DNA of 64,000 bases from Clostridia bacterium. Lineage in GTDB: Bacteria > Bacillota > Clostridia > Christensenellales > UBA1242. Within the stretch, counting starts at the first letter, position 1. Each line of letters opens with the position of its first letter. Below, piece by piece: positions 6,921 through 62,065 of this stretch. A program made the position numbers and the translations under genes. The stretch is from NCBI GenBank assembly GCA_045534555.1, contig JAZSJW010000031.1:8280-72279 (forward strand), read 5' to 3'. The notes beneath the pieces were generated by a model. The model had not been told where the DNA came from and made no database searches. It was given only the letters and a program-made list of their open reading frames with translations.

Positions 6921-7021
6921 AATAAAAGCACTTTGTGTGCTTTTTTTGTTTTACAAGGATTTATATTTTGTTATATAATTACACTTAAGAAAAGTATGTC
7001 ATATAATATTATGGAGTGGTT

Positions 7022-8425
7022 ATGAGAAAAACAAAAATTGTGTGCACCTTAGGTCCTGCATCAAGCAGTAAAAACATTATAAAACAGATGGTTTTGGCTG
7101 GAATGAATGTGGCAAGGCTTAATATGAGCCATGGTAATCACGAAACACATCATAAATTGATAGAGCTTGTTAAAGAGGTTAGAAAAGAGCAAGGCGTTCC
7201 CGTTTCTATTATGGTAGATACTAAGGGTCCAGAAATAAGAGTCGGGCTATTTGAAAGAGGGGGAGTAGAGCTTGTAAAAGGTGGTCGCTTTATTTTGACA
7301 ACTAGGCAAGTTTTGGGTAATGAACACGGTGCTAGTGTAACCCTTAAGAATTTTAACAAGATTGTTTCTAGGCATGATAAAATATTATTAAATGACGGTT
7401 TAATTAAACTTGAAGTTGAAGATATTGCAGAAACTGAAGTTATGTGCAAGGTCCTTTCGGGTGGAAAACTAACAAACAATAAAAGTATTAATATACCGGG
7501 TGTAAAGCTTGATTTAGAGTATTTGTCGGAACATGATAAATCGGATATAGATTTTGCAATAAAAGAAGGGGCGGACATTTTTGCAATTTCTTTTGTTAGG
7601 TCAAAAGATGATGTTTTAGCTGTAAGAAAATATTTAGAAAAGAAAAATTATTCACAAGCACTTATATGCTCTAAAATTGAGAGCCAAGAGGGTGTGGATA
7701 ATATGAATGAAATTATTGAGGTTTCAGATGCTATAATGGTGGCACGTGGTGATCTTGGAGTAGAGGTGGAGTTTGAAAAAATTCCTTACATACAAAAGCA
7801 GCTTATAAGTAAGTGTATTAGGGCGGGTAAAAATGTAGTTACAGCAACAGAAATGCTAGAAAGTATGATACATAATGTGAGGCCAACTCGTGCAGAAATC
7901 TCAGATATTGCAAATGCTGTTTTAGATGGAACAAGTGCCTTAATGTTATCTGGTGAAACCTCTGCTGGAGAGTATCCTGTTTTAAGTGTTGAAACTATGG
8001 CAAAAATTGCAGAGGAATGTGAAAGAACAAATAATTACGAACAAGCAATTGATTTTGAACACTCAACAAATATAGGTGCGAGTGTAGGGTATGCGGCTTG
8101 TGAACTTGCAAGAAGCTTAAGTGCAAAAGCTATTATTGTTGCAACAAATTCAGGTTTTTCAGCTAATAGTGTAAGCAGGTTTAAACCAAAATCTTTAATT
8201 ATTGCAACAACCCCAAATGAAATGGTGTACAATCAAATGTCGCTTTGTTGGGGAGTGTCTCCGGTGATGGATAAGGTTTATTCAACGTCAGATGAACTTT
8301 TAGAAAATTCCAAAATAAAGGCATTAAATACAAAACTTGTTAAAAAGGGCGATTTAATTGTTCAGACAGGTGCTGTTAATGTAGGAAAAGAGGGTTCAAA
8401 TCTTTTAACTGTTTCAATTTTATAA
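7022..8425 (+). CDS. pyk: Pyruvate kinase
   Basis: RKTKIVCTLGPAS, ARLNMSHG, DTKGPEIR, MVARGDLGVE, PTRAE, MLSGET; start at ATG 7022 after GGAG. Confidence 0.98.
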   Translation: MRKTKIVCTLGPASSSKNIIKQMVLAGMNVARLNMSHGNHETHHKLIELVKEVRKEQGVPVSIMVDTKGPEIRVGLFERGGVELVKGGRFILTTRQVLGNEHGASVTLKNFNKIVSRHDKILLNDGLIKLEVEDIAETEVMCKVLSGGKLTNNKSINIPGVKLDLEYLSEHDKSDIDFAIKEGADIFAISFVRSKDDVLAVRKYLEKKNYSQALICSKIESQEGVDNMNEIIEVSDAIMVARGDLGVEVEFEKIPYIQKQLISKCIRAGKNVVTATEMLESMIHNVRPTRAEISDIANAVLDGTSALMLSGETSAGEYPVLSVETMAKIAEECERTNNYEQAIDFEHSTNIGASVGYAACELARSLSAKAIIVATNSGFSANSVSRFKPKSLIIATTPNEMVYNQMSLCWGVSPVMDKVYSTSDELLENSKIKALNTKLVKKGDLIVQTGAVNVGKEGSNLLTVSIL

Positions 8426-8528
8426 AATAAAAACACAACATTCACCTGTTGTGTTTTTTTTGTTGGTCAAAATTTATACTTAAACAATATATTTTATAAA
8501 AAAATATTAAAAAACACCCATAATTTAT

Positions 8529-8561
8529 TTGACATAGGGGGGGGGGGGTATTGTGTATAAT
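8529..8561 (+). promoter_or_regulatory. Sigma-A promoter with G12 tract in the spacer (putative phase-variable promoter, copy 1)
   Basis: TTGACA 8529-8534, TA, G12 8537-8548, TATTGTG, TATAAT 8556-8561; spacer 21 bp. Confidence 0.85.
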
Positions 8562-8695
8562 AAAATTAAGCTAGTGTGTATCTTTAAAGAACATACTTTT
8601 TCTGTTATTATATGGTACTATAAATATATCAATGTTTATCCAGTTATATTTTTGTGAATTAATTTATCTTCTAAGCATCAAAATAAGGATTATAA

Positions 8696-11600
8696 ATGAG
8701 AAATAAAAAGTCAATTAGCTTAATAATAAGTTTGATAAGCGTATTTATAATAGGCTTGTCTTTTCTTGTGGGCTTTTTGTTTAAAGATAAAGATAGGGTA
8801 TTAGAAGATTTAGATGGAGAGCAATCTATAAATGTGTCAGTTGTTTCAGATGATGCTACAATAGAAGATAAAGGTGGTGCCATTTATGTTGAACCGGGTT
8901 CAAGTTATACAATGTATGGTGGAATTGTAAGTGGAAAAGCAACAACATATGGTGGTGCGATTTTTGTTTCTAATGGTGCAACATTTACCATGAAAGGTGG
9001 AACAATAGAGAATTGTTCCTCGTCTTATGGTGGAGCTATCTTTGTTGCAAATGGTGGCAAATGTATAATTGATGGAGGGAAAATAGAAGATTGTAGTGCA
9101 TCGGCTAATGGTGGTGGAATTTATGTTGAAGGAAATGGCACTTTAGAACTTGTTAAAGGTGAGATAAAGAACTGCACTGCTACTAGTTATGGTGGGGCTA
9201 TTTATACAAATTCTAATTTGAGCATAGACAATAATGTTTCTTTACTAAATACTAACACGGATAATGTGTCAAATAGAGGAGGAGCTATTTATTTTAATGG
9301 AAAAACATTAGATATAAATGGTTCAAAAATAGAGGGATTTAAAACGACTGGTTATGCAGGTGCGATATGGAATCAGTCTGGTACGGTTAATATAAGTAAT
9401 GCCACTCTAATATCCAATAAAACTGATGGTAGAGGTGGTGTATTGTTTAACAAAAACGGAGTGGTAAACATTTCGAATTCATACATCCAAGGGTGTGAAG
9501 CGAAAGATGGTGGTTCTGTAATAAATGACACAAAAGGAACATTGAATATTGATGACGTTACATTTGAAGGTTGTAATGCATCGTCCGCTGGTGGAGCAAT
9601 ATACAATTCAGGTACATGTACAATCAAAGGAGATTCTACATTTTATAATAATAAAGCAAGCGGTTGGGGTGGTAGTATTATTAACCACGGAACTATGACT
9701 ATGAGCGCTGGACATATTTACTCAGATCAAGTTTATTCAGACGATGGTGTAGCAAATAGGGGTGGCGGAATTTATAATTCTGGAACATTTGAATTTTCTG
9801 GAACTGCTGAAATTTTTGACTGTTATGCAAGACAAGATGGTTCAGGCGTTTATAATACTGGTACATTTACAATAACAGACACCGCATCTATTCGCTTTAA
9901 CAGGATAGCAAGCGATTCTACTAGTGGAAATGGCGGTAATGTATATACTTCTGGAACAATGATAATGAATGGTGGCAGCATAAATGGCGGTTCTGCTAGT
10001 TATGGTGGTAATATATATTCAGAGGGTGAATTAACAATTAATAGTGGAACTGTTTTGTCGGGTAGTGCTTATAATGATGGTGGCAGCATTTATTCTGTAT
10101 CTAGTAGTTTTAAAACGACAATAAAAGATATAACTGTAAGCTATTCTTCATGCGGTGGCAAAGGAGGGGCTTTCTACTTATCTGGTTCGGCAGAATTAAC
10201 AAATATTACTTTTGAAAATTGTTATTCTTATGGTGACGGTGGTGCAATATTTGTTGCAGGAACTACAGATTTTTCTTGTACTGATACAGAGATTAAAAAT
10301 TGTGAGGCCATAAGAAATGGTGGTGCAATATATCTTGATAGTGCGGAAAACTTCAGTTGTAATCAGGTAGATATCTATAACTGTAATGCAAAAGGTAGTG
10401 GTGGTGCTCTGTATTTAGCAAGCGCTGATAGTTGTCAACTAATAGTCAATATTGATTTATGTGTTGCTGGTGTGAATGGTGGTGGTATTTATTATGGCTC
10501 TTTAGATACGTCAATGTATGAAGATACAAATGATGTAATGATAACAAATTGTACTGCAACAAATGGCGGCGGCTTTTATTCAACTTTAAGTGAGCCTGAA
10601 AATTATTATAATGCATATATAACAAATTGTACTGCAACAAATGATGGCGGTGGTTGTTATATAAAAAACGAAGCAGAAACAACAAATGAATATATCATAG
10701 CTAAAAATTGTACAGCAGGAAACAATGGCGGTGGTGGCTATGTTGAAAATAGTGATGATGTTTCATTTGGAGTATTTAGCTTTACAGAATGTGAGGCTAG
10801 TAATAATGGTGGAGGTATTTATTTATCAAACACAACCTCAAGTAAAGGAGCAACCCTTCATTCATCTATAGATGATTGTAGCGCCTTGATGGGTGGAGGG
10901 GCATATTTAATAAATGCTTCAGAAGAAGCGAATATATCTTTTAGCCCAAGAATAGAAAATTGTACTGCAACAACTGGCGGTGGATTATATCTAGAGTCAT
11001 TGTCTACTGTATATATGGGTGGTTATATATCTGGTTGTATTGCTTCTGAGAATGGTGGAGGAATATTTGTAAAAGACACAAAAACTTTAGAATATGGTAA
11101 AGTTTTTAGTTGTCAAGCTGAATATGGCGGCGGTATTTATGCAGAAAACACAGAAGTAACAGATTATGACTATGATAGGCTATTTCAACCTATAGGATTT
11201 GCACAAAATGTTAAAAATTTAGTTTCGGCAAATGAAGAAGCAATATATGATAATAAAGCCAATTGTGACGGTGGTGGATTTTATTTAAAAAATTCTTACC
11301 TATCACAATCTAAAACAATAATTGCAAACAACATGTCTGATGGCGAAGAAGCTAAAGGTGGAAATGTTTATATTGATAGAACTTCAGGCTTTGGGCTTTT
11401 AGGTGGTGGTATAACAATATCGGAAGAAGCTGATACTGGTGCTGTTTATGGCGGTGTCATTTATTGTGAAGGTAGAATTACTATAAATGAGACACTTTTT
11501 GTTAGTGGACCAAAAGTGGAAATATCTGGTGGAAAAGCAACTTATGGCGGAGCTATATATTTGTCTGGCGGAACATTATCAATTGATGAAAAATCAACAT

Positions 11601-14600
11601 TGACAATAAAAAACACATCGTCAGATTATGGTGGAGCCATTTATATTGATGAAGATTCTGTAGTCTCTGCTAGTGGTGAAATTTCAATAGAAAGCTCTTC
11701 TGCGAATGAAGGGGGAGCAATATATTGTGCGGGAACGTTTGATTTTGCAAAGGGATATATAAAAAGCTGTTCGTCAACAACAAAAGGAGGCTCTATTTAT
11801 TTAACAGGAGGTACCTTATCAAACACAAGCGGTTATAGTCTAGATATCAACAATTCGGTTTCTGAATATGGCGGAGCTATATATATTGACAAAGAATCAA
11901 CTTGTTCTTTATATAATGGAGAAATATATTCATGTGAAGCTAGTTATGGCGGTGCTATCTATTGTGCGGGAGAGCTTAATGTTAAGAAGGGTAGTATTTA
12001 TGAAAATGCTGCCGCAGAAAGTGGAGGTGGAGTTTATCTTACAGGAAGCTTCACGATAAATAATTGTGAAATATTAAGCAATCAAGCAATAAATGGTGGA
12101 GCTATTTATTCAAATAAAGGAACTGTTGAAAGAGAAGGCACTGATAATATAAATATAAATAATAATATCGCTCAACGTGGAGCGGGAATATATTTTAGTG
12201 CCGGAAAGTCGTTAAGTCTTGATTTTACTAATGTAAAATTGCAAAACAATAAAGCAACATATAATAGCTTGAGAGGCTTTGGTGGTGCTATTTATAATGC
12301 TGGCAATTTGGAGCTTTTAGGAGTAACGATTAATGGCGATAGTGAACAAGCCAATGCTTCTGTTGGTGGAGGAATATATAATAGTGGTACGTTGACATTA
12401 AAAAACGCAACACTAAAAGATTTATATGTTAGTGAATATGGGGCGGCAATTGATACAGAAGGAAATTTAACTTTAGATGGTGTTTCAATTTTAAATTGTG
12501 AAGCGGCAGACCGTGGAGGTGCTGTGTTTGCATTAAAAACATCTACGACAACAATTATAGGAAATAGCAAAATTAGTAATAATATTGCAACAAAAGGTGG
12601 TGCGTTTTCTTTAACAAATAGTGCAACATTAATAATGGATAGTGGTACTATAAATAACAATAGATTATCAATAAATAATAATAAGGCTTGGGGCGGGCAG
12701 ATTTATTTGCAAACAGCAACAACTAAATTTATTATGAATGATGGTACTATTTCAGGAAATGCAGAGCCGCAAACTTCATATATAAGCGATTATGTTAATG
12801 CATATTATGGTGGAGGTATTTATAGTGTAGGTACAGTAGAGATTAATGGAGGGACTATAGTAAATTGTGTCGCTACTTGTGGTGGAGCAGTTTATAATTT
12901 AGGTCAAATTGATTTAATCGGTACAAGTGTGCAAATAAAAGAAAACTTTAGTAAAAGTGGTGGTGCTATATATTCTGTAGATGCAACCTGTAATTTATTA
13001 GGTGGAGAAATTGTAAATAACTATGCTTCTAACCATGGTGCGGGAGTTTATGCAACAGGCTCAACATTTGTTATTGATGGAACAAATATAGATAATAATA
13101 TACTTGTTGCTGACAACTTAGATTCGTTTAATAGAGGCCATGGTGGAGGAATAGTTGTTTCTAGTTGTAATGTTACCATGAATAGTGGAAGCATAAGCAA
13201 CAACACAATAAACGAAACTGCAGTGCAGCCATTTGCTGGTGGTGTTTATGTAACAGGTACTACCGAATTTATATTTAATGGCGGTACAATACAAAACAAT
13301 GTAATAAAATCTAATAAAGGTGGCGGCGGAAATATATTTATTAATCCAGCAGCTAAATTTATAATGAATGGAGGCCTTTTAGCAGGGGATAGAAATACCT
13401 GTCAAGCTCAACTAGGTGGTGCAATTCAAAATTATGGAAAAGTTGAAATTTATGGTGGAGAAATTTCGGGTTGTCGTGCAATTTATGGTGGCGCAATATC
13501 GAATTTTGGTGAACTTACAATAAAAGACTCAACACCTCAATTAGATGGAGGGGAGAGAACTTATTTAACAATTAAGAATTGCTTTGCAACATCAGGAATT
13601 GGGTCGAACATTTTTGCAGCTAATACAATTAACATAGAAGACTCGGTAAATATTTCGACAGGATCTATAGTTATTGCTTGTGTAAAATATACATATGTGG
13701 AATCTGAGACTTTATTTATAGATGAATATGTAGGAAAAATTATTTATAATAAAAACTATGATGAAGCATTAACTCAGATAGCAAGACAAACAATTCAATT
13801 ATATGATTTTGATTTTGATGATATATCCCTAGTAACTTCTTCTTTTAATAATGGTTATGAAGGATATATTGATACTTTAAGAAATGGCATAGCAAATCAT
13901 TATGTGCACAAATTTGATGGTTCGATCTCAATTGAATATTTTGATGAAGAGGGTAACACTTATGGAGCAACATATGGTGGCGAAGCAAAAAATGATTGGT
14001 TTTTAGATACAAATGGTTTTTATTCTATTGATAATTTTAAAATTGAAACAATAACTGAAGAAAAAGGCTTTAAGTTGATTGATGATAGAAATGATGGAAA
14101 TTCATTTAGTCCTGTCGGTTTAGATTATTATAACCCAAATGAAAACATTAATCAGTATGGTGTAAAAATATGGTGGAATGTTTATATTGATTATTTTGAT
14201 AGATTTACAATGTTTGATTCTCCTTATAATAGTCTTTTACAAGGCGAAAAAATGAAGGTTTATGATAAAGACATAGTTATGGTTGATGAAACAACTCAAG
14301 CAATATACCCTTTTTATGTTGATAATGCGGGTAATATTCAAAACAATTATGATTACAATCATAAGTTCCATTTATACGCACATTTTAGTTATTGGTATGA
14401 TGTAGAGACTAGTGTTGATGGTAATCTAAATAGATTTGGTGTTAATGAAGAGGTTTTGATTACCGGAGATAAGAATATAAGGTCGTATTATTTTATATCA
14501 GTTACTATTGGAAGTAGATATAATGGGTTTGGACAAGAGGGGTTTGATGTTTATCCATTCCCAACACCAAATTATTGTTATGAATTTGGACTTGAATTTT

Positions 14601-15433
14601 ATTCAAACTATTTTAATTATTATGATGGTGACTGTTGGAATAGAGGCTATTTGCAAGAGGCTAATTTCTTGGGTAGATACTTAGATGACGGAGAAAAAGA
14701 ATATCAGTGTATTGTTGATTGGGATATTTATGATGGGGTTATCTTTGATAGTAGTTATAATGTGACTAGTGTTATTAATGGTTATCAGTTTAACTTTTAT
14801 GAGAATATAACAATAGATTATGCGGATACATATCATTACTATTATTTCAATTTTTATGGTAACGAGAAAGTGGTTGATCCTGGTGGTTTCGTAATTGAAG
14901 AAGTAGTATATAATGAATATACAATTAATGTAAATGGTGTAGAACATAGTAGTTATAGTTATGATGAATACACTGAAGACTTTTTAGGCTTTTGGATTTT
15001 TGAGGGGGATTTGTATTTAGGAGACGGTACTCGTTATACTGGTTCTTATGTTGAAGTTGGTGTAACCTATTATTTCTATGATAATGTTCATATATATCCA
15101 GATGCAATAGCAAAAGACTCGCATGAAACTACTGTAACAATTTACACAGAGGGTGAGAGTGGTTATAGAAATCAAATATATTCAACCACTATTTCATACA
15201 CAATGCCAGATGTTTTATATGTTGAAGTAAAAAATGGTGCGATATATTTATGGGGGCAAAAAGTTGTTGACATACCATCAACACCTCCATCTGATAGTGG
15301 GTTGCTTAGCAATGTAGCGATATATGACTCTGCGTACAATAGATTAAATTATGTGGTTGGAAGCAGTGTTTTATATGATGAAGGAATTTCAAATGGCGAA
15401 GATTTCATAATAATAATTCATTATATCGTGTAA
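8696..15433 (+). CDS. Giant membrane-tethered GGAI-repeat (Pmp/right-handed beta-helix-like) surface protein, paralog A (2245 aa)
   Basis: N-terminal basic + hydrophobic anchor; dozens of xGGAIY repeats with NC.A motifs; Tyr/Asp-rich C-terminal region; no LPXTG motif or beta-barrel. Confidence 0.85.
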   Translation: MRNKKSISLIISLISVFIIGLSFLVGFLFKDKDRVLEDLDGEQSINVSVVSDDATIEDKGGAIYVEPGSSYTMYGGIVSGKATTYGGAIFVSNGATFTMKGGTIENCSSSYGGAIFVANGGKCIIDGGKIEDCSASANGGGIYVEGNGTLELVKGEIKNCTATSYGGAIYTNSNLSIDNNVSLLNTNTDNVSNRGGAIYFNGKTLDINGSKIEGFKTTGYAGAIWNQSGTVNISNATLISNKTDGRGGVLFNKNGVVNISNSYIQGCEAKDGGSVINDTKGTLNIDDVTFEGCNASSAGGAIYNSGTCTIKGDSTFYNNKASGWGGSIINHGTMTMSAGHIYSDQVYSDDGVANRGGGIYNSGTFEFSGTAEIFDCYARQDGSGVYNTGTFTITDTASIRFNRIASDSTSGNGGNVYTSGTMIMNGGSINGGSASYGGNIYSEGELTINSGTVLSGSAYNDGGSIYSVSSSFKTTIKDITVSYSSCGGKGGAFYLSGSAELTNITFENCYSYGDGGAIFVAGTTDFSCTDTEIKNCEAIRNGGAIYLDSAENFSCNQVDIYNCNAKGSGGALYLASADSCQLIVNIDLCVAGVNGGGIYYGSLDTSMYEDTNDVMITNCTATNGGGFYSTLSEPENYYNAYITNCTATNDGGGCYIKNEAETTNEYIIAKNCTAGNNGGGGYVENSDDVSFGVFSFTECEASNNGGGIYLSNTTSSKGATLHSSIDDCSALMGGGAYLINASEEANISFSPRIENCTATTGGGLYLESLSTVYMGGYISGCIASENGGGIFVKDTKTLEYGKVFSCQAEYGGGIYAENTEVTDYDYDRLFQPIGFAQNVKNLVSANEEAIYDNKANCDGGGFYLKNSYLSQSKTIIANNMSDGEEAKGGNVYIDRTSGFGLLGGGITISEEADTGAVYGGVIYCEGRITINETLFVSGPKVEISGGKATYGGAIYLSGGTLSIDEKSTLTIKNTSSDYGGAIYIDEDSVVSASGEISIESSSANEGGAIYCAGTFDFAKGYIKSCSSTTKGGSIYLTGGTLSNTSGYSLDINNSVSEYGGAIYIDKESTCSLYNGEIYSCEASYGGAIYCAGELNVKKGSIYENAAAESGGGVYLTGSFTINNCEILSNQAINGGAIYSNKGTVEREGTDNININNNIAQRGAGIYFSAGKSLSLDFTNVKLQNNKATYNSLRGFGGAIYNAGNLELLGVTINGDSEQANASVGGGIYNSGTLTLKNATLKDLYVSEYGAAIDTEGNLTLDGVSILNCEAADRGGAVFALKTSTTTIIGNSKISNNIATKGGAFSLTNSATLIMDSGTINNNRLSINNNKAWGGQIYLQTATTKFIMNDGTISGNAEPQTSYISDYVNAYYGGGIYSVGTVEINGGTIVNCVATCGGAVYNLGQIDLIGTSVQIKENFSKSGGAIYSVDATCNLLGGEIVNNYASNHGAGVYATGSTFVIDGTNIDNNILVADNLDSFNRGHGGGIVVSSCNVTMNSGSISNNTINETAVQPFAGGVYVTGTTEFIFNGGTIQNNVIKSNKGGGGNIFINPAAKFIMNGGLLAGDRNTCQAQLGGAIQNYGKVEIYGGEISGCRAIYGGAISNFGELTIKDSTPQLDGGERTYLTIKNCFATSGIGSNIFAANTINIEDSVNISTGSIVIACVKYTYVESETLFIDEYVGKIIYNKNYDEALTQIARQTIQLYDFDFDDISLVTSSFNNGYEGYIDTLRNGIANHYVHKFDGSISIEYFDEEGNTYGATYGGEAKNDWFLDTNGFYSIDNFKIETITEEKGFKLIDDRNDGNSFSPVGLDYYNPNENINQYGVKIWWNVYIDYFDRFTMFDSPYNSLLQGEKMKVYDKDIVMVDETTQAIYPFYVDNAGNIQNNYDYNHKFHLYAHFSYWYDVETSVDGNLNRFGVNEEVLITGDKNIRSYYFISVTIGSRYNGFGQEGFDVYPFPTPNYCYEFGLEFYSNYFNYYDGDCWNRGYLQEANFLGRYLDDGEKEYQCIVDWDIYDGVIFDSSYNVTSVINGYQFNFYENITIDYADTYHYYYFNFYGNEKVVDPGGFVIEEVVYNEYTINVNGVEHSSYSYDEYTEDFLGFWIFEGDLYLGDGTRYTGSYVEVGVTYYFYDNVHIYPDAIAKDSHETTVTIYTEGESGYRNQIYSTTISYTMPDVLYVEVKNGAIYLWGQKVVDIPSTPPSDSGLLSNVAIYDSAYNRLNYVVGSSVLYDEGISNGEDFIIIIHYIV

Positions 15434-17417: not shown

Positions 17418-17446
17418 TTGACTTTAGAGGAGATGTGATATATACT
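17418..17446 (+). promoter_or_regulatory. Sigma-A promoter of the GLUG-type surface protein
   Basis: TTGACT, 17 bp, TATACT. Confidence 0.7.
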
Positions 17447-17488
17447 TTAAGTATCTTAAATGTGTACGTATGTACAAAGGAGAATATT

Positions 17489-20284
17489 ATGTCTAAAAAA
17501 GGTTTAATTTCATCTCTTATTGTTGGAATTGTTCTTACACTTTCTTTAGGTATTTATACTTTAGTTAGTGTTTTTGGTGGTAATGGCAGCACACCTCCTC
17601 AAGGTCCAACAGAAACAACAGTAAACGTTGCTTTTAGAACAAGCGATACTGTTGAACAATTAAGCGGTTATGCTGAACAAGATATCGTTTTCACTTTAGC
17701 AGGAGAGGGTGCTCAAAACCCAGTTGTGCTAAATGCTGAAACAGGTAAATATGAAGCTCTTTATGCAGGTGAAGTTACTGCAACTGTAACTGATGCAAAG
17801 GGAAATAAAAAGATTTTCAAAATCAAAGTATATAATCAAGGAACTGGTGCTTCGCAGGAAGATGCTTTCATTATTGCAAGTGCAAAACACTTAAAAGAAT
17901 TTGCAGACATCGTTAATTCAGATAGTGCAGAAAGAACTGTTCCTGCATATACAACTTTGGTTTCTGATATTGATTTAGGCGAATATAATTGGAGACCAAT
18001 TGGTGGTCAAGGCAATAAAGAATATACAGGAACTTTTGATGGTAATGGTTATACTGTAAATAACATGACAATTTCTGTAACAGCTACTAACTATGAAGAA
18101 TTCCTTGCTCTTTCTGCTTTACCTGAGGTTGGAACAAGAGGTTTCTTAGATTTAGGTTTATTTGGTAAAGTAAATAATGCAACAATCAAAAATCTAAATG
18201 TTAAAAATGCAACAATCAACGTTGCTACTGATGTTTATTCTGTAATTAAAGAAAACATTGTTCCTGAAGGTGCATTATATGATGCTGGTGTTGTTAGACT
18301 TACAATAGGAACTATTGCAGGTTCTGCTTATAATACAGATATTATTGGAAATGAAGAATATTCTAATATTTCTGCAAGAATTAATGCATATAGCTGTGCT
18401 GCTGGTAACCAAGCTCATGGTATTGGTGGTGTAGTTGGTGTTGCTCAACTTGTAAGAGTTAATGCATATAATGTAAAAACAAATATCACAAACAATCTTG
18501 AATTAACTAAAAATTCATATATTGGTGGTGTGTTTGGTATGGCATTCTCATCATATAATGTTGGTTATACAAACAATGTTTATGATGCTGCTGATAGAAC
18601 TGTAATTGACAATGTAAAAGTAGACTTTGCTGGCACATTATTATATAAAAATGCTGCTTGGGTTGGTGGTGTTGTTGGTTACGGTCAAAATATCGGAATT
18701 CAAAACTCTACTGTTGAATCATTTAAAATTGTAGATAACTCAGCAAGAAGTCATATTGACTATACTTTAGATGACTATACACACGTTGCTGGTGTTGCTG
18801 GTACATTTGCTTCTTATCCATTAACAGGTGCTGAAAAAGACGATGCTGCTGTAGTAGCTGCATTTGTTAGCGGAATGGAAAACGTTGATGTTAAAAATGT
18901 TGATGTATTCATGCTTGGTGGTGATGTTGCTGGTGCTGTTTGGTTTGCTGGTAACAACTACGATGAAGCTATTGGCTTAAATGAAACAATGAGAATTAAG
19001 AACTCTACTGTTAATGGTAACATTACAGCAAATAGAGTTGCTGGTTTCGCTTGGCAAGTTAACCCAGGTGTTACAATTGAATATACAAAGACTTTTGAAA
19101 CAGCTGTTGTTGATTTAGATATTAAAGCTGTTGTATCTGCTGGTTTTGCATTATTAAACCATGGTCAAATCGTTGGTTATAGAGAAACTGTTCCTGTAGC
19201 TGAAGGTTCTGAAGAAACAAAAGTTGTTACAACAAAAATTAATATTAATACAATCGGAATGGGTGCATTAATTGAAGCTCCTATTACAAATCAAAAAGTT
19301 TGGACTGCAAGAAATGCTGTTTATGCTGCTGGTTTTGTAGGTAAATCAGAAACATTAGTTGCTGTTGGTAATGCTGATTTTTCTAAAGGTGTTGCAGGTA
19401 TTGCAAACTTTGATATCAACTTTACAGCAAAAGAAAGCATTAACTATGCAGGTATTGCATTTAAGACTGGTATTACAGGAATTATGGGTATTACAGTAAA
19501 TGCAAACTTTACATCATACAACTATAGTGCACAAGGAAACAATATTTCTACTACATATATGGTTTCAGGTGGTGTTTGTGAAGCGAGTGCTGGAACAGCT
19601 TTAACTGAAATAAAAGTTATTTTAAATGTAAATAACGGTGTAAATAAATCTCTTAACTACGGCGCAACATTCTTTGGTGGTTTAGTTGCTAGATATGTTG
19701 GTTCTGAAGTTATTAATGAAGAAGCTTGGGGATTGGCTATTGATAATAGTGAAGTTTCAGGAGAAGTTTATTTTAATCATTCATATGAAACAATCACAAT
19801 TGATGAAGTTAATTACAATGTGTTTATTGCTGGTGGTTTAATTGGTGCTATTGAAGCAAAAACTGCTGCTGGTGGTCAAGAATATGTTGATGCTCTTGCA
19901 ATTACAAGCTTTGCAGGTTCACACGTTTCTGGCAATACAGTATCTAACTTAAAAATCACTGCAGACTTTACTAATGATACTTTGGGTAGCCAAGGTTATA
20001 GAACAAGAGGTGTTGGTGCTTTAGTTGGTGTTGTTAATATTGCATTAGATGCAGATGTTATTGACCTTTCAACAAACACTGTTACAGCTGTTGAAATTGT
20101 TGCAGATGAAGATGCTTTCACTTATGCATATGAAGGGGAAAATGGTTCACAAGTAACAAATATTCTTCTTGGTGCTAACAAAGAAAATGTATTTGGTGCA
20201 AGCTATGCTTGGAACTGTACAATTGCAAACAGAATTACAAATCCAGCTGAAGTTGGTGTAACATACACAGAATTAGCTGAATAA
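17489..20284 (+). CDS. Large surface protein with GLUG-type beta-helix repeats (931 aa from ATG 17489)
   Basis: AAGGAG RBS before ATG 17489; N-terminal TM; DIDL..WRPIG..YTGTFDGNGYTV, GLFG, repeated IGG(V/L)(V/I)G motifs. Confidence 0.8.
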   Translation: MSKKGLISSLIVGIVLTLSLGIYTLVSVFGGNGSTPPQGPTETTVNVAFRTSDTVEQLSGYAEQDIVFTLAGEGAQNPVVLNAETGKYEALYAGEVTATVTDAKGNKKIFKIKVYNQGTGASQEDAFIIASAKHLKEFADIVNSDSAERTVPAYTTLVSDIDLGEYNWRPIGGQGNKEYTGTFDGNGYTVNNMTISVTATNYEEFLALSALPEVGTRGFLDLGLFGKVNNATIKNLNVKNATINVATDVYSVIKENIVPEGALYDAGVVRLTIGTIAGSAYNTDIIGNEEYSNISARINAYSCAAGNQAHGIGGVVGVAQLVRVNAYNVKTNITNNLELTKNSYIGGVFGMAFSSYNVGYTNNVYDAADRTVIDNVKVDFAGTLLYKNAAWVGGVVGYGQNIGIQNSTVESFKIVDNSARSHIDYTLDDYTHVAGVAGTFASYPLTGAEKDDAAVVAAFVSGMENVDVKNVDVFMLGGDVAGAVWFAGNNYDEAIGLNETMRIKNSTVNGNITANRVAGFAWQVNPGVTIEYTKTFETAVVDLDIKAVVSAGFALLNHGQIVGYRETVPVAEGSEETKVVTTKININTIGMGALIEAPITNQKVWTARNAVYAAGFVGKSETLVAVGNADFSKGVAGIANFDINFTAKESINYAGIAFKTGITGIMGITVNANFTSYNYSAQGNNISTTYMVSGGVCEASAGTALTEIKVILNVNNGVNKSLNYGATFFGGLVARYVGSEVINEEAWGLAIDNSEVSGEVYFNHSYETITIDEVNYNVFIAGGLIGAIEAKTAAGGQEYVDALAITSFAGSHVSGNTVSNLKITADFTNDTLGSQGYRTRGVGALVGVVNIALDADVIDLSTNTVTAVEIVADEDAFTYAYEGENGSQVTNILLGANKENVFGASYAWNCTIANRITNPAEVGVTYTELAE

Positions 20285-54725: not shown

Positions 54726-54849
54726 TAAATAAATTAATCAAAAAAATATAAGAGTGGGGATTTCCACTCTTTTTTTATGCCAGTTTTTGAATTAAAGGTT
54801 AAAGATTTAAAAAAAATATAAAAAAATTTAAAATACCCCCTAAATTTAT

Positions 54850-54881
54850 TTGACATAGGGGGGGGGGGTATTATGTATAAT
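54850..54881 (+). promoter_or_regulatory. Sigma-A promoter with G11 tract in the spacer (putative phase-variable promoter, copy 2)
   Basis: TTGACA 54850-54855, TA, G11 54858-54868, TATTATG, TATAAT 54876-54881; spacer 20 bp. Confidence 0.85.
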
Positions 54882-55003: not shown

Positions 55004-58000
55004 ATGAGAAGAAAAAAAGTTATAAGTTTAGTTATAAGTTTGGTAAGCGTATTTGTAATAGGCTTATCATTTCTTGTGGGATTTTTGATAAAAGAAAAAA
55101 ACCAAACAAATACTTTAGAAGCAGAAACGACAGAGAATGTTTCTGTTGTTCCTGATGACGCAACGATTGAGGATAAAGGTGGTGTCCTTTATATTGAAGA
55201 GGGTTGCTCATATACAATGTTTGGCGGAACAATAGGCGGAGAAGAAACAAAATATGGCGGTGCAGTTTTTGTTTCACCGGGTGCAACTTTTATTATGAAA
55301 GGTGGAACAATTGAAAACAGCAAAGCAACTTATGGCGGAGCTATATTTGTTGCAAATGGAGGAACTTGTGTTTTAGAAGATGCTGTTATTGATAATTGTT
55401 CTGCAGGCATAGATGGAGGTGCTATTTATCTAGAAAAAACAGGAAGTTTAACCATAGATGGTGTTGAAATTAAAAACTGTTCAGCTGCAGGTAATGGTGG
55501 TGGAATATATACTCTCGCAACTAGTGGTACCTTAAACATAAAAAATGTTACTTTCACAAATCTTGATGCTGTAGATGGAGGTGCTGTTTACTCAAATGGT
55601 ATGGATATTATATTTGATGAAATTATTGCAGATGAGAATGGACCAGTTACTATTCCTGCTAGTAACATAAGTTATTGCGATGCATTAGGTTCAGGCGGTG
55701 CTATTTATTCAAAAGGCAACATTTCAACAAATAAAACAACAATTACTAATTGTACCACTAAAACTAACGGTGGTGCTATATATTCTAATAAAGATGTTTC
55801 TTTAGGGTATTCATGGGATAATGTTGAGGAAGATTTATGGCATCTTGAACAAACTACAATAAAAAATTGTTCGGCAGATTTAAATGGAGGTGCATTTTAT
55901 TCTAAAAGCATATATCTTAATTGTGTTGACATAAGTGACTGTACTGCAGAAGAAAGTGGAGGTGCAGTATATACAGAAAGATTTGGTGGTGTTTCACAAA
56001 GTGTTTCATATTTTTATATGGAGTATGGAAAAATAAATAATTGCTCTGCTAAATATGGAGGTGCAGCTTATATATTAAGCAGCTTTAATGCGGGAAACAT
56101 TTATATTGATAAATGCTCTGCAAAAAATGGAGCCGGTATTTTTTCAAGGGCTGATGAGATAATATTTGATGAAGGAGTTCTTATAACTAATTGCTCAGCA
56201 ACAGATAATGGTGGAGGTATTTTTGCTTCTAACGGACTTGATGTAAATTCATATTTTGAAACAATAGTTGATAGTTGTGAGGCAGGTGTCAGTGGTGGTG
56301 GCATTTTTGTATCTGATCGCCCTGATGGAAATAAAATAAAAAATATTAGTATAGCTAATTGTAAAGCTGGTTCTGGTGGTGGTATTTATGTAAATTCACA
56401 AACAAAAACAGTAATAGATGAAACTTATATAGAAAATAATACAGCAGAAGTCGGTGGTGGTATTTATAATGCTTATGGATCGCAAGTTTCTATCACAGGA
56501 GGAGTTATTTTTAACAATTCGGCAACTAACGGTGGTGGCATTTATAACAACTCAAGTAAGACAACTGAAATTTCGGGAACTGCTAAAATAATCGGCAATA
56601 CAGCGACATTAGGAGGCGGTGTTTATTCTAACAATTATACAACAATATCTATTAGTGGTGGTCAGATTGTTGGAAATGAAGCAACATCTTATGGTGGTGG
56701 AATTTATGCTGTGCAAGCAACAGTCAATCATAGTGGTGGAATTGTTGGTGGAGAATATGTATACAGTCAGATATCATACACAGGAAATAAATCAACAGGT
56801 GAAGCTGGTGGCGGTGTGTACATAAAAAACGGAACATACAACCTTACTGGAGGAAGTGTGATTCAAAATAGTGCTCCAAGGGTTGCGGGGATCTTTTTGT
56901 ATAGTTCAGAATTTTCAATGACTGAAGGTTCTGTTTCATTAAACACAGCCACAGACAAAGAAGTTGGTGGAATTTATGTATATGGATCATCAACGGCAAC
57001 AATTAGTGGTGGAAGTATTTCTAACAATACAGCAACATATGGTCCTGGAATTTTTGTTGCTTCATCAAGCACTCTAAAGATGACGGGAGGTGTTGTAGGT
57101 TATAACTCAGGATATCGTGGCGGTGGAATTTATCATTCATCATCAGGTGAGTGTGTTATTTCTGGAAATGTAAATATCATTGGAAACACAGTTACAAATA
57201 ATGGTGGAGGAATTTATATAAATTCAGGAACACTTACATTAGGAACAGAAGACGAGGAATTCACAGGAAATATTACAGGAAACAATGCGAAAATTTATGG
57301 TGGTGGAATTTACTGCTATTCTACAATAAATCATAATAGCGGAAGTATTGGCGGTGAATATGTGGATGGAGAGTTAACTCATGTTGGGAATAATGCAACA
57401 TCAGGAGCAGGTGTATTTCTTAATTCAGGAACATACAATTTGAATGGTGGAAACATTTCTAACAACACATCTAAAAAGTTGGCTGGTGGAGTTATGTGTA
57501 ACGGGGGCTCATTAATAATGTCAGGCGGAAGTATTTCACAAAACTCTGCAAATAGTGAAGCTGGCGGTGGTGTTTATTTATACGAAAAAGCAAAAGCAAA
57601 AATCAGCGGTGGTGAAATTTCTTTCAATTATGCAGAATGGAATGGCGGTGGTATTTATGTTATAGATACCTCTTCATTAGATATGTCAGGGGGTATAATT
57701 ATTGAGAATACCACTAGTGGATATGGCGGAGGAATTTTTAATACCTCAACAACGGAAATGATTATTTCAGGAAGTGCAAAAATTGTAGGAAATCAGTCAA
57801 AAACATCAAATGGAGGCGGAATATATCATTATTCAACGGCACGACTTACAATTTCTGGAGATTCAAAAATTGCAGGAAATGAGTCGAGTCAGGCAGGCGG
57901 TGGAATTTATAAAATTAATGGGGAATTGTTTATCTCAGGTGGACAAATAACTGGTAACTCGTCAACAAAAAGTTCTGGTGGAGGAATTTACGCAAGCGGC

Positions 58001-61000
58001 ACAATTAATCAAACTGGTGGAATGATTGGTGGTGAATATACATATGGAGAAACAACACACACTGGAAATACTGCTCAATTGAATGGCGGTGGTGTTTATT
58101 TGACCAGTGGGCAATATATAATTAATAAAGGTGAGGTTGTTGGAAACGAGGCTTCAACAGGTGGTGGTGTTTTTGTTAATAATAATGCAACACTGAACAT
58201 GACAGGTGGAAATGTGTCTCAAAACACCGCAGCAACCAACGGTGGAGGAATATATTTTAAGGAAACATCAAAATACAGCCTCGAAGATGTAATAATATCA
58301 GAAAATACTGCTAATGATGGTGGTGGAATTTATTCTGAAACTTCGTTAACACTAGAAAAGATTACAATTAAAGAAAACAAAGCAAATAATAATGGTGGCG
58401 GGGTTTGTGTGGCTAATGGAACTACAACATTAACCGCAGTGAAAATCATATCAAACACTGCAGAAAATTATGGTGGGGGCATTTATTCTTTTGGCTCTGT
58501 TAACATTTCATCAGGCTTTAAATATAGTGACTATGAAGATGTTTGGGAAGATATGTTTGGAGACATTATTAATAAATATCCAACGAATGCAATAGAGGAT
58601 GCGACCGAAATTTCTTGTAACATATCAACAAATGGTTCTGGTGGTGGAATTTATGCCGGTGGTAACATTACAAGTTATGGTTGCAAATTGCTTCAAAATA
58701 GTGCACCAAATGGTTCTGGTGGTGGCTTTTATTCAATTGGAAAAATAACAAGTGACTTTCAGACAATAGAAGTTACAGTATATGATACAGATAATCTTTC
58801 AAATATTGATTATGGTGAACCAAGTGAAAAAAATGTAGTTGTGATTTCTTCAAGTTTATCAAATTACAACACTTGTGGTGTTGATGGTGGTGCATTCTAT
58901 GCAAGCCAAGGATTTTATCTTTGCGGATCCATGACTGGTAACGAAGCTGGAAATAATGGAGGATCTATTTATTCTTCAGGAGATGCTGAAGTTGAAATAG
59001 GTATAGTTGATGTTGATATTGATAATTACGATATCATTGAAGAAAGCATTCTCACGCAGAACCAGGCAATTGAAGGTTCTGGTGGTGCTATTTATATGTC
59101 TAATGGCCTCTTAAAATTTAACGGAAGCGCCACTTCAAATACGGCAGCAATTAACGGTGGTGCGATTTACAGCGGGGTTGATACATCAATTTATAATCTT
59201 TACTATGACGAATATCAAATAAAAATACAAAACAATACAGCAGGAGAACTTGGTGGTGGTATATTTACTCTTGGAAATTTAACAGTTGATGATGCATATA
59301 TAAATTGCAACTATGCGGATAAAGGTGCTGGTATTGCAATTGATGGCGGAAAACTAGAGATGATTTATGGTGAGATTTCGGAAAATACCGCAACTTCTCA
59401 TGGGGGAGGTGTATATGTCACTAATGGAGAAATTTTGCACTCTTATGGGTCAATTAGTAAAAACTCTTCCGGAGCTGCCGGTGGAGGCGTGTATTTAAAT
59501 AAATCGACATTAAACATTTCTGGCGGAACGGTGAAAGAAAATACTGCAATGCGTGCAGCAGGTGTGTTTGTCTATAACAAATCAACATTAAATTTGACAC
59601 AAGGGTCAATATCGTATAATAAAGCAACTGATACTTATGCTGGTGGTGTATATTTATATAGCAACTCAACAGCTGTTATGAGTGGCGGTTCTGTGGAATA
59701 TAATACTTCAAAATCGAATGGCGGTGGTTTTTATGTTTCTGCTAACAGTTCACTTGAGCTTAGTGGTGGAAAAATTAATTCGAACACTGCAGAAAAGACA
59801 ACTTCAAATACTAGAGGTGGAGGAATTTTCCTTGCGGGGTCATTGAATATGACAGGAGGAACAATTTCAAACAACAAAGCTGCATCAGGTGGTGGCATTA
59901 ATGCTTTTGGTGGTTCAACAATTAGCATAACAAAAGGAACGATTTCAGGAAACTGTGCGTATAGGCATGGTGGAGCTATACTTTGTAGCGTAGATTTAAC
60001 TCTTGGAAATGTTGATGCTGATAATAGTGATTTGAAAATTGTTGAAAATTATTTGTCTGGTCACGTTCTTGAAGATGGAACAGAGTATGCAAGTGGAAAC
60101 GGTGCTGCTATTGCGCTTGCGAGTGAAGGTGTAATAACTATGAATTCTGGGATGATTTCTGGAAACTATATTAAATCTTCGACTACAAATATGATAGGTG
60201 CGGGAGTTTATCTTACAGATAATTCAAAGTTTGTTTTGAATGATGGTTTAATTGACGCAAATTATTTCGAGTATGACGAAAAAGGAAATCCTGTTTCAAG
60301 AATAAATAGTGAAGGGTTAGTGTATGAACATAGATACAAAGGCGGCGCGATTTGCCTGAATACAGAAACACAGTTTGTGATGAATGGAGGAATAATTCAA
60401 AATTCAGACGCTGTTTATGGTGGAGCGATTTACGTCTTTTATGATGGACTTCTTGAGTCTCAAAGTAAGATATCAGTTTCAATGACCGGTGGCACTATTA
60501 CTAACTGCCGAGCAGATTATGGCGGAGCTATTTGTGTTGAGGGTGAATTAGATGCAAGCCTTACTTCAGTTCCAGACTTTCATACTGTGGACTTAATGGG
60601 CGCAGGAACAATCTCTTATTGTTCAGCGAAATATGATGGCGGTGCAGCATTTACTAATATTGGTGATATTTGGGCTTCAAATGGCACAGATGGAGCTTTT
60701 GTATTTAATTCTTGTACAGCAGGAAGAAATGGTGGAATTATTGCAGCTGATGGAAGCGCTGCTGGATTTATGTTTATTGATTGCAGCTTTGATAACATAA
60801 GCTTAAGAAATCAAAATAACGAACTTGACAATAGTTTATATACAACAACGTATAAAGATATGATTGAAAGACATGGCTGGCAATTCACTCCATGTGGAAC
60901 ACTAATTCTTGCAGAAAATGGGGGATTAGTAAGCTCAACAAATGGTGCGTCTGGCTATTTTGGGCTAAATGATTTTGATATTGATATTGCAGTAAAACAA

Positions 61001-62065
61001 ACAGGCGTGTATGGTTATAACGTTACTGTAGAATGGTCAGATCAAGTAGAGGGTTGCAGGCACGAATACGTTGACCAATTCTATGAATTAGGACAAGAAG
61101 ATAAAAATTATCAAATTACAATTGAAGTTTATGATTCATATGGAGATTATGCGGGTGAAGAAATATATTCAGATATACCAGTTACTCCAGCAGAGGAAGA
61201 TTATTATTGTTCCTTTTACAATATTACAACCTATTATGATCCATGTGAAATAGTTACGGTTGATGAAAATAATTTATGTATTTATGATACTTATGACGGA
61301 TCGTATTTCAATGAAACTTTTTATGTACAATTTAATAGTTGGTATGCTGTAATTGACGGTGTTAGTTATGAAAAAGAAGCAATCAATGATATTGATCTTT
61401 GCGTTTCGTCTGATGGAACAACAACAATTTGTATTATAGCATATCAAGATAGCTGTCCTAATTGTGATGGTTTTGGCTGGGTTGATTGTGGAAATTGTGA
61501 CAATGGAATTGTTAGTGGTTGCGATTATTGTGACAATGGTGTGTGCATTGATTGTGGAGGTTCTGGAGAGTGTAGTGCCTGTGACGGTACAGGTGATGAT
61601 GGTGAGTGTCTTTCTTGTGATGGAGGTCAAGATTGTGTTTTTTGTGGCGGTGATGGATATTGTGATGAATGCAATGGGTCTGGAGAAAAGGACTGTGATG
61701 TTTGTGGGGGAATAGCAGAAGTAGAATGTGAATATTGCTATGGTGAAGGAAGTATTATTGAGGACTATTATGGCACTTGTGTTGTAAAATACGGCAGTGA
61801 AAATTATGTATTTAAAAGAGATGAAAATGGCTGTGTTTCTATTGAGATAAATAGTTCTTATAGTTCTGCACTATTAGAGGTTTATATTAATGGTGAAATG
61901 ATTGGAAGTGTTGACTTTGAAACCAGTATGCTTGATCATTGGCGAGTAAAGATTGGGTCAAAAACTTATTCAGGATCCGGAGAAACGGATAATATTATTA
62001 CTGAAGATATTTCAGTTGAACATAACTCTGTTCTAACATTAACAATTGAACATTTTGTTAATTAA
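55004..62065 (+). CDS. Giant membrane-tethered GGAI-repeat beta-helix surface protein, paralog B (2353 aa), with C-terminal CxxC array
   Basis: N-terminal ~150 aa clearly homologous to 8696-15433; GG(A/G)IY repeats; 10 CxxC motifs near the C-terminus. Confidence 0.85.
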   Translation: MRRKKVISLVISLVSVFVIGLSFLVGFLIKEKNQTNTLEAETTENVSVVPDDATIEDKGGVLYIEEGCSYTMFGGTIGGEETKYGGAVFVSPGATFIMKGGTIENSKATYGGAIFVANGGTCVLEDAVIDNCSAGIDGGAIYLEKTGSLTIDGVEIKNCSAAGNGGGIYTLATSGTLNIKNVTFTNLDAVDGGAVYSNGMDIIFDEIIADENGPVTIPASNISYCDALGSGGAIYSKGNISTNKTTITNCTTKTNGGAIYSNKDVSLGYSWDNVEEDLWHLEQTTIKNCSADLNGGAFYSKSIYLNCVDISDCTAEESGGAVYTERFGGVSQSVSYFYMEYGKINNCSAKYGGAAYILSSFNAGNIYIDKCSAKNGAGIFSRADEIIFDEGVLITNCSATDNGGGIFASNGLDVNSYFETIVDSCEAGVSGGGIFVSDRPDGNKIKNISIANCKAGSGGGIYVNSQTKTVIDETYIENNTAEVGGGIYNAYGSQVSITGGVIFNNSATNGGGIYNNSSKTTEISGTAKIIGNTATLGGGVYSNNYTTISISGGQIVGNEATSYGGGIYAVQATVNHSGGIVGGEYVYSQISYTGNKSTGEAGGGVYIKNGTYNLTGGSVIQNSAPRVAGIFLYSSEFSMTEGSVSLNTATDKEVGGIYVYGSSTATISGGSISNNTATYGPGIFVASSSTLKMTGGVVGYNSGYRGGGIYHSSSGECVISGNVNIIGNTVTNNGGGIYINSGTLTLGTEDEEFTGNITGNNAKIYGGGIYCYSTINHNSGSIGGEYVDGELTHVGNNATSGAGVFLNSGTYNLNGGNISNNTSKKLAGGVMCNGGSLIMSGGSISQNSANSEAGGGVYLYEKAKAKISGGEISFNYAEWNGGGIYVIDTSSLDMSGGIIIENTTSGYGGGIFNTSTTEMIISGSAKIVGNQSKTSNGGGIYHYSTARLTISGDSKIAGNESSQAGGGIYKINGELFISGGQITGNSSTKSSGGGIYASGTINQTGGMIGGEYTYGETTHTGNTAQLNGGGVYLTSGQYIINKGEVVGNEASTGGGVFVNNNATLNMTGGNVSQNTAATNGGGIYFKETSKYSLEDVIISENTANDGGGIYSETSLTLEKITIKENKANNNGGGVCVANGTTTLTAVKIISNTAENYGGGIYSFGSVNISSGFKYSDYEDVWEDMFGDIINKYPTNAIEDATEISCNISTNGSGGGIYAGGNITSYGCKLLQNSAPNGSGGGFYSIGKITSDFQTIEVTVYDTDNLSNIDYGEPSEKNVVVISSSLSNYNTCGVDGGAFYASQGFYLCGSMTGNEAGNNGGSIYSSGDAEVEIGIVDVDIDNYDIIEESILTQNQAIEGSGGAIYMSNGLLKFNGSATSNTAAINGGAIYSGVDTSIYNLYYDEYQIKIQNNTAGELGGGIFTLGNLTVDDAYINCNYADKGAGIAIDGGKLEMIYGEISENTATSHGGGVYVTNGEILHSYGSISKNSSGAAGGGVYLNKSTLNISGGTVKENTAMRAAGVFVYNKSTLNLTQGSISYNKATDTYAGGVYLYSNSTAVMSGGSVEYNTSKSNGGGFYVSANSSLELSGGKINSNTAEKTTSNTRGGGIFLAGSLNMTGGTISNNKAASGGGINAFGGSTISITKGTISGNCAYRHGGAILCSVDLTLGNVDADNSDLKIVENYLSGHVLEDGTEYASGNGAAIALASEGVITMNSGMISGNYIKSSTTNMIGAGVYLTDNSKFVLNDGLIDANYFEYDEKGNPVSRINSEGLVYEHRYKGGAICLNTETQFVMNGGIIQNSDAVYGGAIYVFYDGLLESQSKISVSMTGGTITNCRADYGGAICVEGELDASLTSVPDFHTVDLMGAGTISYCSAKYDGGAAFTNIGDIWASNGTDGAFVFNSCTAGRNGGIIAADGSAAGFMFIDCSFDNISLRNQNNELDNSLYTTTYKDMIERHGWQFTPCGTLILAENGGLVSSTNGASGYFGLNDFDIDIAVKQTGVYGYNVTVEWSDQVEGCRHEYVDQFYELGQEDKNYQITIEVYDSYGDYAGEEIYSDIPVTPAEEDYYCSFYNITTYYDPCEIVTVDENNLCIYDTYDGSYFNETFYVQFNSWYAVIDGVSYEKEAINDIDLCVSSDGTTTICIIAYQDSCPNCDGFGWVDCGNCDNGIVSGCDYCDNGVCIDCGGSGECSACDGTGDDGECLSCDGGQDCVFCGGDGYCDECNGSGEKDCDVCGGIAEVECEYCYGEGSIIEDYYGTCVVKYGSENYVFKRDENGCVSIEINSSYSSALLEVYINGEMIGSVDFETSMLDHWRVKIGSKTYSGSGETDNIITEDISVEHNSVLTLTIEHFVN

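Follow-up and report, generated by a model that had tools for sequence, protein, structure and literature searches.

Poly-G tracts in the promoter spacers of giant repeat-protein genes: candidate slipped-strand switches in a family of reduced-genome gut bacteria

The 64-kb stretch of DNA analysed here (the window) contains two runs of G, each lying between the -35 and -10 hexamers of a promoter that precedes a giant gene, and these runs are probably slipped-strand contingency switches of the two promoters, a reading in which both the slippage and its effect on expression are deduced from sequence features. Gain or loss of G residues during replication would change how far apart the -35 and -10 elements lie, together with the angle between them about the helix axis, and the housekeeping sigma factor would be expected to fire at spacers near 17 nt and to do so poorly at 20–22 nt. 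A phase-variable promoter had been proposed in a sequence-only reading of the window, and that proposal gains support from a 17-nt optimum among ordinary promoters of the same genome, from a dip in tract promoters at just that spacing, from the occurrence of two tract lengths in each of three relatives, and from a frameshift form of the tract in a further relative (G010).

Promoter anatomy and the tracts of the source genome

Reading from the -35 hexamer, the full order of elements is TTGACA-TA-G12-TATTGTG-TATAAT in promoter A and TTGACA-TA-G11-TATTATG-TATAAT in promoter B, so that the layout and the spacers of 21 and 20 nt given in the sequence-only reading prove exact to the letter (Table 1); the start codons lie 147 and 135 nt downstream, respectively. 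The accompanying statement that no other long G run occurs in the window also stands, since these two are its sole runs of seven or more G or C; at 31.9% GC, the number of runs of 11 or more G expected under a first-order Markov model is 0.003. The hairpin that follows the pyruvate kinase gene would shield promoter A from read-through.

Table 1 Features of the window around promoters A and B (positions are those of the window).
Feature	Position	Strand	Remarks
Pyruvate kinase gene	7016-8425		Pfam PK
Intrinsic-terminator-like hairpin 3' of pyruvate kinase gene	8429-8461	+	Stem 8429-8458; shuffles expect 0.0
A/T-rich segment with short C run (8517-8519)	8494-8528	+	Common to paralog promoters (promoter alignment)
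-35 hexamer TTGACA, promoter A	8529-8534	+	Sequence
G12 tract in spacer, promoter A	8537-8548	+	Spacer 21 nt (2+n+7); 17 nt would need G8
Proximal weak -10-like TATTGT, promoter A	8549-8554	+	4/6 matches, spacer 14
-10 hexamer TATAAT, promoter A	8556-8561	+	Without TG in extended -10 register
Gene for 2245-aa protein	8696-15433	+	33 GG[AG][IVL] repeats at aa 60-1598; N-terminal hydrophobic anchor; predicted beta-helix stalk
Intrinsic-terminator-like hairpin	54750-54776	+	Pseudouridine synthase gene 5' of it, promoter B 3'
-35 hexamer TTGACA, promoter B	54850-54855	+	Sequence
G11 tract, promoter B	54858-54868	+	Spacer 20 nt
Proximal TATTAT, promoter B	54869-54874	+	Spacer 13
-10 hexamer TATAAT, promoter B	54876-54881	+	Sequence
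Gene for 2353-aa paralog	55004-62065	+	N-terminal anchor; 43 GG[AG][IVL] repeats; 10 CxxC motifs in C-terminal region

Ways in which such promoters might work at their assembled lengths can be dealt with briefly. Rescue of the long spacer by an extended -10 element is ruled out by the absence of TG at -15/-14 in both promoters, and a different -35 element placed 17 nt from TATAAT by the presence of CATAGG at that point in promoter A. Sequestration of the -35 hexamer by a hairpin in which the tract pairs with the upstream C run fits promoter B by eye and fails for promoter A, and was dropped. Compensation through the helical twist of poly(dG) is probably too small to make good 3–4 bp.

The source genome assembly (G000, 941 kb) holds no G or C run of length seven and ten of length 8–13, six of which sit 2–4 nt after a TTGACA. 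Five of these six sites, spread over four contigs, precede paralogous genes for proteins of 2245, 2353, 2361, 1564 and 1407 aa; in the same order, the tracts are G12, G11, G12, G12 and G13 and the spacers 21, 20, 21, 21 and 22 nt. A tract is present in all five paralogs that have an intact 5' end; for a further paralog, on C44, the contig does not include the promoter or the N-terminus, and the sixth site, on C24, has an interrupted run with a spacer of 19 nt to a weak box and lies 32 nt from a contig end.

Which of the two boxes behind the run serves as the -10 element matters for the arithmetic. TATAAT or TATACT is found 7 nt behind the run in five of five paralog promoters, and only three of them have a -10-like hexamer directly after the run (the C5 and C38 copies do not keep it), for which reason we infer that the distal box is the one in use. 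A 17-nt spacer requires G8 for the distal box and G15 for the proximal one; the five promoters are 3–5 G away from that spacing (3–4 for the pair in the window) and none has a spacer of 16–18 nt. Contraction to G8–G9, named in the sequence-only reading as the route to the ON state, is consistent with this in that G8 does give 17 nt, but expansion to G15 by way of the proximal box would be possible as well.

Some further features of this genome may be recorded here. All nine G runs for which the 3' flank is available continue with T, eight of them with TA, whether they lie in promoters or in coding sequence. One, a G9 run at G000:C21:31518-31526 (minus strand), lies within an intact 839-aa ORF and is in frame as assembled. 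Outside the window, at G000:C2:1-1554 (minus strand), there is a tandem array of four small paralogs beside prophage-like structural genes, in which the first copy has no homopolymer and encodes 117 aa, while copies two to four have runs of G10, G11 and G8 or more (the last cut by the contig end), all at one codon position, and stop after 16, 24 and 15 aa as assembled; the array, which we take to resemble tail-fibre tip cassettes, is a candidate SSR-switched receptor-binding repertoire. Within the window, a 949-aa ORF (17435-20284, plus strand) has an N-terminal hydrophobic segment, no Pfam match and no upstream G tract. Loss of mismatch repair as a cause of the long runs is not supported, as a MutL-family gene is present in G000, and slippage would thus need to outrun repair.

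The motif and its length variants among relatives

Across the family, TTGACA with a G8 within 10 nt occurs in 51 of 150 genomes (214 matches, including the six of G000), against a single match in the same genomes for a reversed-motif control, and the same motif is found in 6 of 195 genomes of the class outside the family. A poly-C version after TTGACA gave 22 matches in 15 of the 150. The family genomes are 0.6–1.6 Mb in size, and a range of 671–1,611 kb is on record for UBA1242 (Christensenellales) (PMC12306168); in the richest relative, 25 sites with runs of at least G6 were counted. Outside the genus the motif precedes many other kinds of gene, mostly predicted to be exported: a hydrophobic N-terminal start was found in 113 of 153 ORFs behind tract promoters, as against 5 of 35 behind ordinary 17-nt promoters of G000. 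The expectation that the motif would always precede GGAI-repeat genes is accordingly borne out in G000 (all five placed sites), but not family-wide.

The gene family itself was found in all ten congeners and in 3 of 14 other family genomes tested, and the proposition that every paralog bears a tract is false in two of them. G001 has the gene family and no G8 run. In G007, 20 further paralogs, drawn from the search that placed the gene family in these genomes, have no run of eight or more G within about 500 nt (there is one interrupted run), none of them adjoins any of the 13 runs known in that genome, and several have another candidate promoter nearer the gene. At one G007 locus (L543, G007:C35:360-960) the flank 5' of the -35 hexamer is as in G000, with ordinary sequence where the G run would be, which points to gain or loss of the tract in this sub-lineage. 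In G006 (L024), G002 (L029), G009 (L022) and G007 (L536) there are paralog promoters whose G run is collapsed or interrupted, and these look like phase-locked alleles.

An all-species scan returned at least 123 loci (L167-L289), mostly from gut Bacillota; the matches listed include uncultured Bacilli, other Clostridia, Saccharibacteria and Treponema. A metagenome scan with a G000-specific promoter pattern gave no match, and one with the family alignment yielded 80 relatives, all distant (identity no higher than 49%) and lacking any run of eight or more G on the gene strand, which do not bear on this lineage. Logan contigs from seven distinct runs included no piece spanning tract A.

Length variation is visible inside single assemblies. 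In G003, G006 and G154 one contig ends just past a tract and another starts just before a tract, with identical flanks (43+22, 34+65 and 71+82 nt, respectively) and with G counts in the overlapping ends of 13/12, 12/11 and 8/9. Two alleles in the same sample would produce such a pattern, as could stutter in PCR or sequencing, or duplicates of very recent date. In the congener G010, five genes (four of them matched to the family) carry G9–G13 within their first codons; as assembled, all five reach a stop after 14–17 aa, and for the four whose downstream sequence is long enough a different tract length opens a frame of at least 510 aa. The same gene family would thus seem to use both a transcriptional and a translational form of one mutable element.

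Spacer lengths in relation to the 17-nt optimum

Among 558 ordinary TTGACA sites of G000, i.e. those without a G run, a strong -10 element was found at a spacer of 17 nt in 44 cases, compared with 12 at 16 nt, 16 at 18 nt, 10 at 20 nt and 4 at 21 nt, the background at other spacers being 2–8; there is no excess at 20–21 nt in these ordinary promoters. The 363 ordinary TTGACA sites in the loci of relatives also peak at 17 nt (25 sites). The preferred spacing of about 17 bp assumed in the sequence-only reading therefore holds among ordinary G000 promoters, and the counts suggest that the polymerase of this organism has a narrow optimum there.

Tract promoters behave quite differently. Of 191 such promoters, 28, 33, 8, 22 and 28 have spacers of 15, 16, 17, 18 and 19 nt, respectively; the difference from ordinary promoters gives a Fisher p of 4e-13, a figure that counts kin as independent although they are related. 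The sample comprises G000, all G8 runs of ten congeners, 16 family genomes picked for having several matches, and one site each from 18 more. When run lengths were shuffled among promoters, using the 185 of 211 rows with a run of at least eight, a scored -10 element (by our own simple weighting) and a spacer of 13–23 nt, the 13 promoters observed at 17 nt compared with 31.3 expected, and none of 5000 shuffles gave a value as low. Taking one promoter per genome (37 genomes) leaves 7% at 17 nt against 17% expected, and in the all-species scan 9 of 115 among the matches listed are at 17 nt against 18.4 expected (P 0.004). By lineage, the median spacer is 14–16 nt in eight genomes, 18–21 nt in twelve and 17 nt in one. 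Only 44 of the 185 tract promoters are three or more steps from 17 nt; the G000 tracts, at 3–5 steps, lie in the far tail of the family distribution, from which it follows that ON cells would be rare.

It is against this dip that most of the competing explanations have to be weighed. Sequencing or assembly artefact, in the form of two-colour-chemistry poly-G or of miscalled lengths, might be suspected since, of 199 tract promoters of relatives, 37 have a contig end within 150 nt (as do 1.4% of G000 bases), showing that such sites trouble assemblers; but in five paralog promoters the runs lie in mid-contig and at one and the same place, the motif recurs in 51 genomes, and random errors of length would fill a dip at 17 nt rather than make one, so that this explanation is exceedingly improbable.

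A second possibility is that the genes are served by another promoter, or by a regulator that tolerates the long spacer, with the tract a drifting relic without effect. The many tractless paralogs of G007 would suit a relic. Weak alternative promoters do exist near both genes, with 9 of 12 matches, and one with TG lies at 8583-8611, but they are at chance level (for the latter type, 2 found where 2.9 are expected) and that site has no counterpart downstream of tract B. The regulator would have a possible binding site in the C run shared by these promoters 5' of the -35 hexamer (8517-8519 in promoter A, 54836-54840 in promoter B): CCC occurs 4–22 nt 5' of the -35 in 27 of 49 tract promoters of the genus, in 8 of 150 in other genera and in none of 44 ordinary 17-nt promoters of G000, a distribution that may reflect either shared ancestry or a regulator site. 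Against a relic, neutral drift would not avoid 17 nt, and against an activator of long spacers, tract promoters flank 17 nt on both sides according to lineage (14–16 and 18–22 nt). We regard this possibility, too, as decidedly unlikely.

The remaining alternative within this section is a fixed attenuator, a strong consensus promoter held at a suboptimal spacing to give steady low expression, with no meaningful switching. It draws on the fact that some genomes keep one spacer nearly throughout (six of six at 16 nt in G092, five of five at 15 nt in G110) and on the interrupted tracts of G000 (C24), G024 and G007 (L536). However, pure runs of 8–15 G are poorly suited to fixing a length, lengths differ inside single assemblies and among paralogs with identical flanks (8, 9 and 12 in G024), and the frameshift form in G010 cannot be a dimmer; the attenuator is thus unlikely, and a slipped-strand switch remains the preferred reading.

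The giant proteins, known systems and significance

The paralogy of the two genes in the window, proposed from the outset, is confirmed: their products share 62% identity across the first 170 aa and 27% across some 2,000 aa. Taken together, the five G000 paralogs are 46–67% identical over the first 170 aa and 27–29% overall, with unrelated C-termini; all five have one N-terminal hydrophobic segment, and LPxTG is absent from all five. They contain 25–43 GG[AG][IVL] motifs each, spaced mostly at 24–29 aa (in the one protein measured), and the 2245-aa protein has 21 GGA[ILV] and 16 FxxN. One 500-aa segment of each window protein (aa 51-550) passes the cut-off of 20.6 bits for PF02415, the Chlamydia Pmp repeat, at 28.7 bits (2245-aa protein) and 30.4 bits (2353-aa protein), while whole-protein scans of Pfam and NCBIfam gave no match over cut-off. 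No autotransporter family was found (Pfam up to E 1 on C-terminal segments; nothing relevant in NCBIfam), and because no such domain matched, the G000 proteins are best described as having Pmp-like repeats, rather than as Pmps. A single-sequence structure model of residues 51-450 of the 2245-aa protein is all-beta (pLDDT 81.9); in a Foldseek search with it the top rows are mostly beta-helix proteins at E 0.003 or weaker, with nothing at E 0.001 or better. Atlas structure matches at 0.89 are leads only, and a PDB sequence search gave nothing useful. From these features we infer membrane-anchored surface adhesins or shields, the localisation being a predicted one. That the reading frames are long and intact speaks for continued use of the genes.

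As a separate observation, the ten CxxC motifs of the 2353-aa protein (aa 2150-2270, window ~61450-61810) are absent from the other five paralogs; several fall in a CxxCxGxG pattern, presumably like that of DnaJ zinc fingers.

The pattern of identity bears on one further rival, in which the tract would be a G-quadruplex-type recombination signal for exchange between paralogs, by analogy with the gonococcal pilin locus, and not a spacer switch. The 5' regions of the paralogs are indeed more alike (55–67% over 170 aa) than the rest (27–29%), and G is preferred over C after TTGACA (214 matches to 22); but the variable parts are too divergent to exchange, and recombination does not account for a tract placed between -35 and -10, for the dip at 17 nt or for the unrelated single genes behind the motif. 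This rival is very improbable.

Homopolymer switches in spacers have several precedents, among them the analogous poly-C of Bordetella fim. In Neisseria meningitidis porA and Treponema pallidum tp0126, poly-G lies between the -35 and -10 elements with an optimum of 17 nt (PMC7864442), and the likeness extends to the sigma70-type spacer and a surface protein downstream; those are single genes, reporter-tested, in cultured or animal-propagated pathogens, whereas G000 has five or six paralogs, 3–4 nt off the optimum, in an uncultured Gram-positive lineage. In Mycoplasma hyorhinis every vlp gene has poly-A in its promoter (PMC10502178), and there too a small genome carries a paralogous surface family with its own homopolymer promoter switch for each gene and combinatorial display. 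The vlp tracts are poly-A and the products lipoproteins, unlike the G000 case with poly-G, dispersed loci and beta-helix proteins of 1,400–2,400 aa with an N-terminal hydrophobic anchor, and with the poly-G motif also before unrelated genes in other genera. The Chlamydia Pmps share the GGA(I/L/V) and FxxN repeats and the expansion of paralogs, and pmpG has an in-frame poly-G (PMC4488443), as do the G010 genes; Pmps are type V autotransporters of diderms, whereas the G000 tract lies in the promoter and no autotransporter family matched. Finally, in Cutibacterium (Propionibacterium) acnes, a Gram-positive commensal, a homopolymer between -10 and -35 has been tied to differences in expression (PMC4746626); that case concerns a short C5–C7 tract before a metabolic gene, with a 2-fold effect between strains and no surface-gene repertoire. 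The mechanism is thus already known, and the present analysis adds its family-wide scale, the avoidance of 17 nt and the parallel frameshift form; the literature covered, which lay outside subscription journals and supplements, held no report of such switching at many loci and throughout a family for these gut bacteria with reduced genomes.

If the tracts do act as slipped-strand switches, the five or six dispersed genes of G000 would switch independently, each being off or low in the assembled majority. With the distal TATAAT in use, the ON state would lie near G8, 3–4 steps away for the window pair, and ON cells would be rare. Costly proteins would then be off in most cells, while a minority displayed varying combinations of them; the selective agent might be phage, host immunity or partner-cell choice. 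On a wider view, held with rather less confidence though we lean towards it, there is a promoter-level phasome in a large uncultured family of reduced-genome gut Firmicutes, with up to ~25 exported-protein genes per 1-Mb genome behind perfect consensus promoters in which the constant bases of the spacer are set such that a G run of usual length misses 17 nt, with lineages parked short or long, and with one congener having moved the switch into the reading frame.

A multi-locus SSR repertoire would then be present in a third of the sampled family genomes, at about eleven times the rate elsewhere in the class. A word of caution is that consensus genomes would mostly display the off state. Assemblies suffice for the 17-nt dip test, which can flag such switches in any genome collection, and if the same avoidance of 17 nt in many other gut Bacillota is truly of this kind, poly-G promoter switching would be common, and overlooked, among non-pathogens. 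For the family itself, the switched genes indicate which surface proteins experience fluctuating selection in bacteria possibly dependent on partner cells, and knowing them may aid both the culturing of these bacteria and the finding of their phages.
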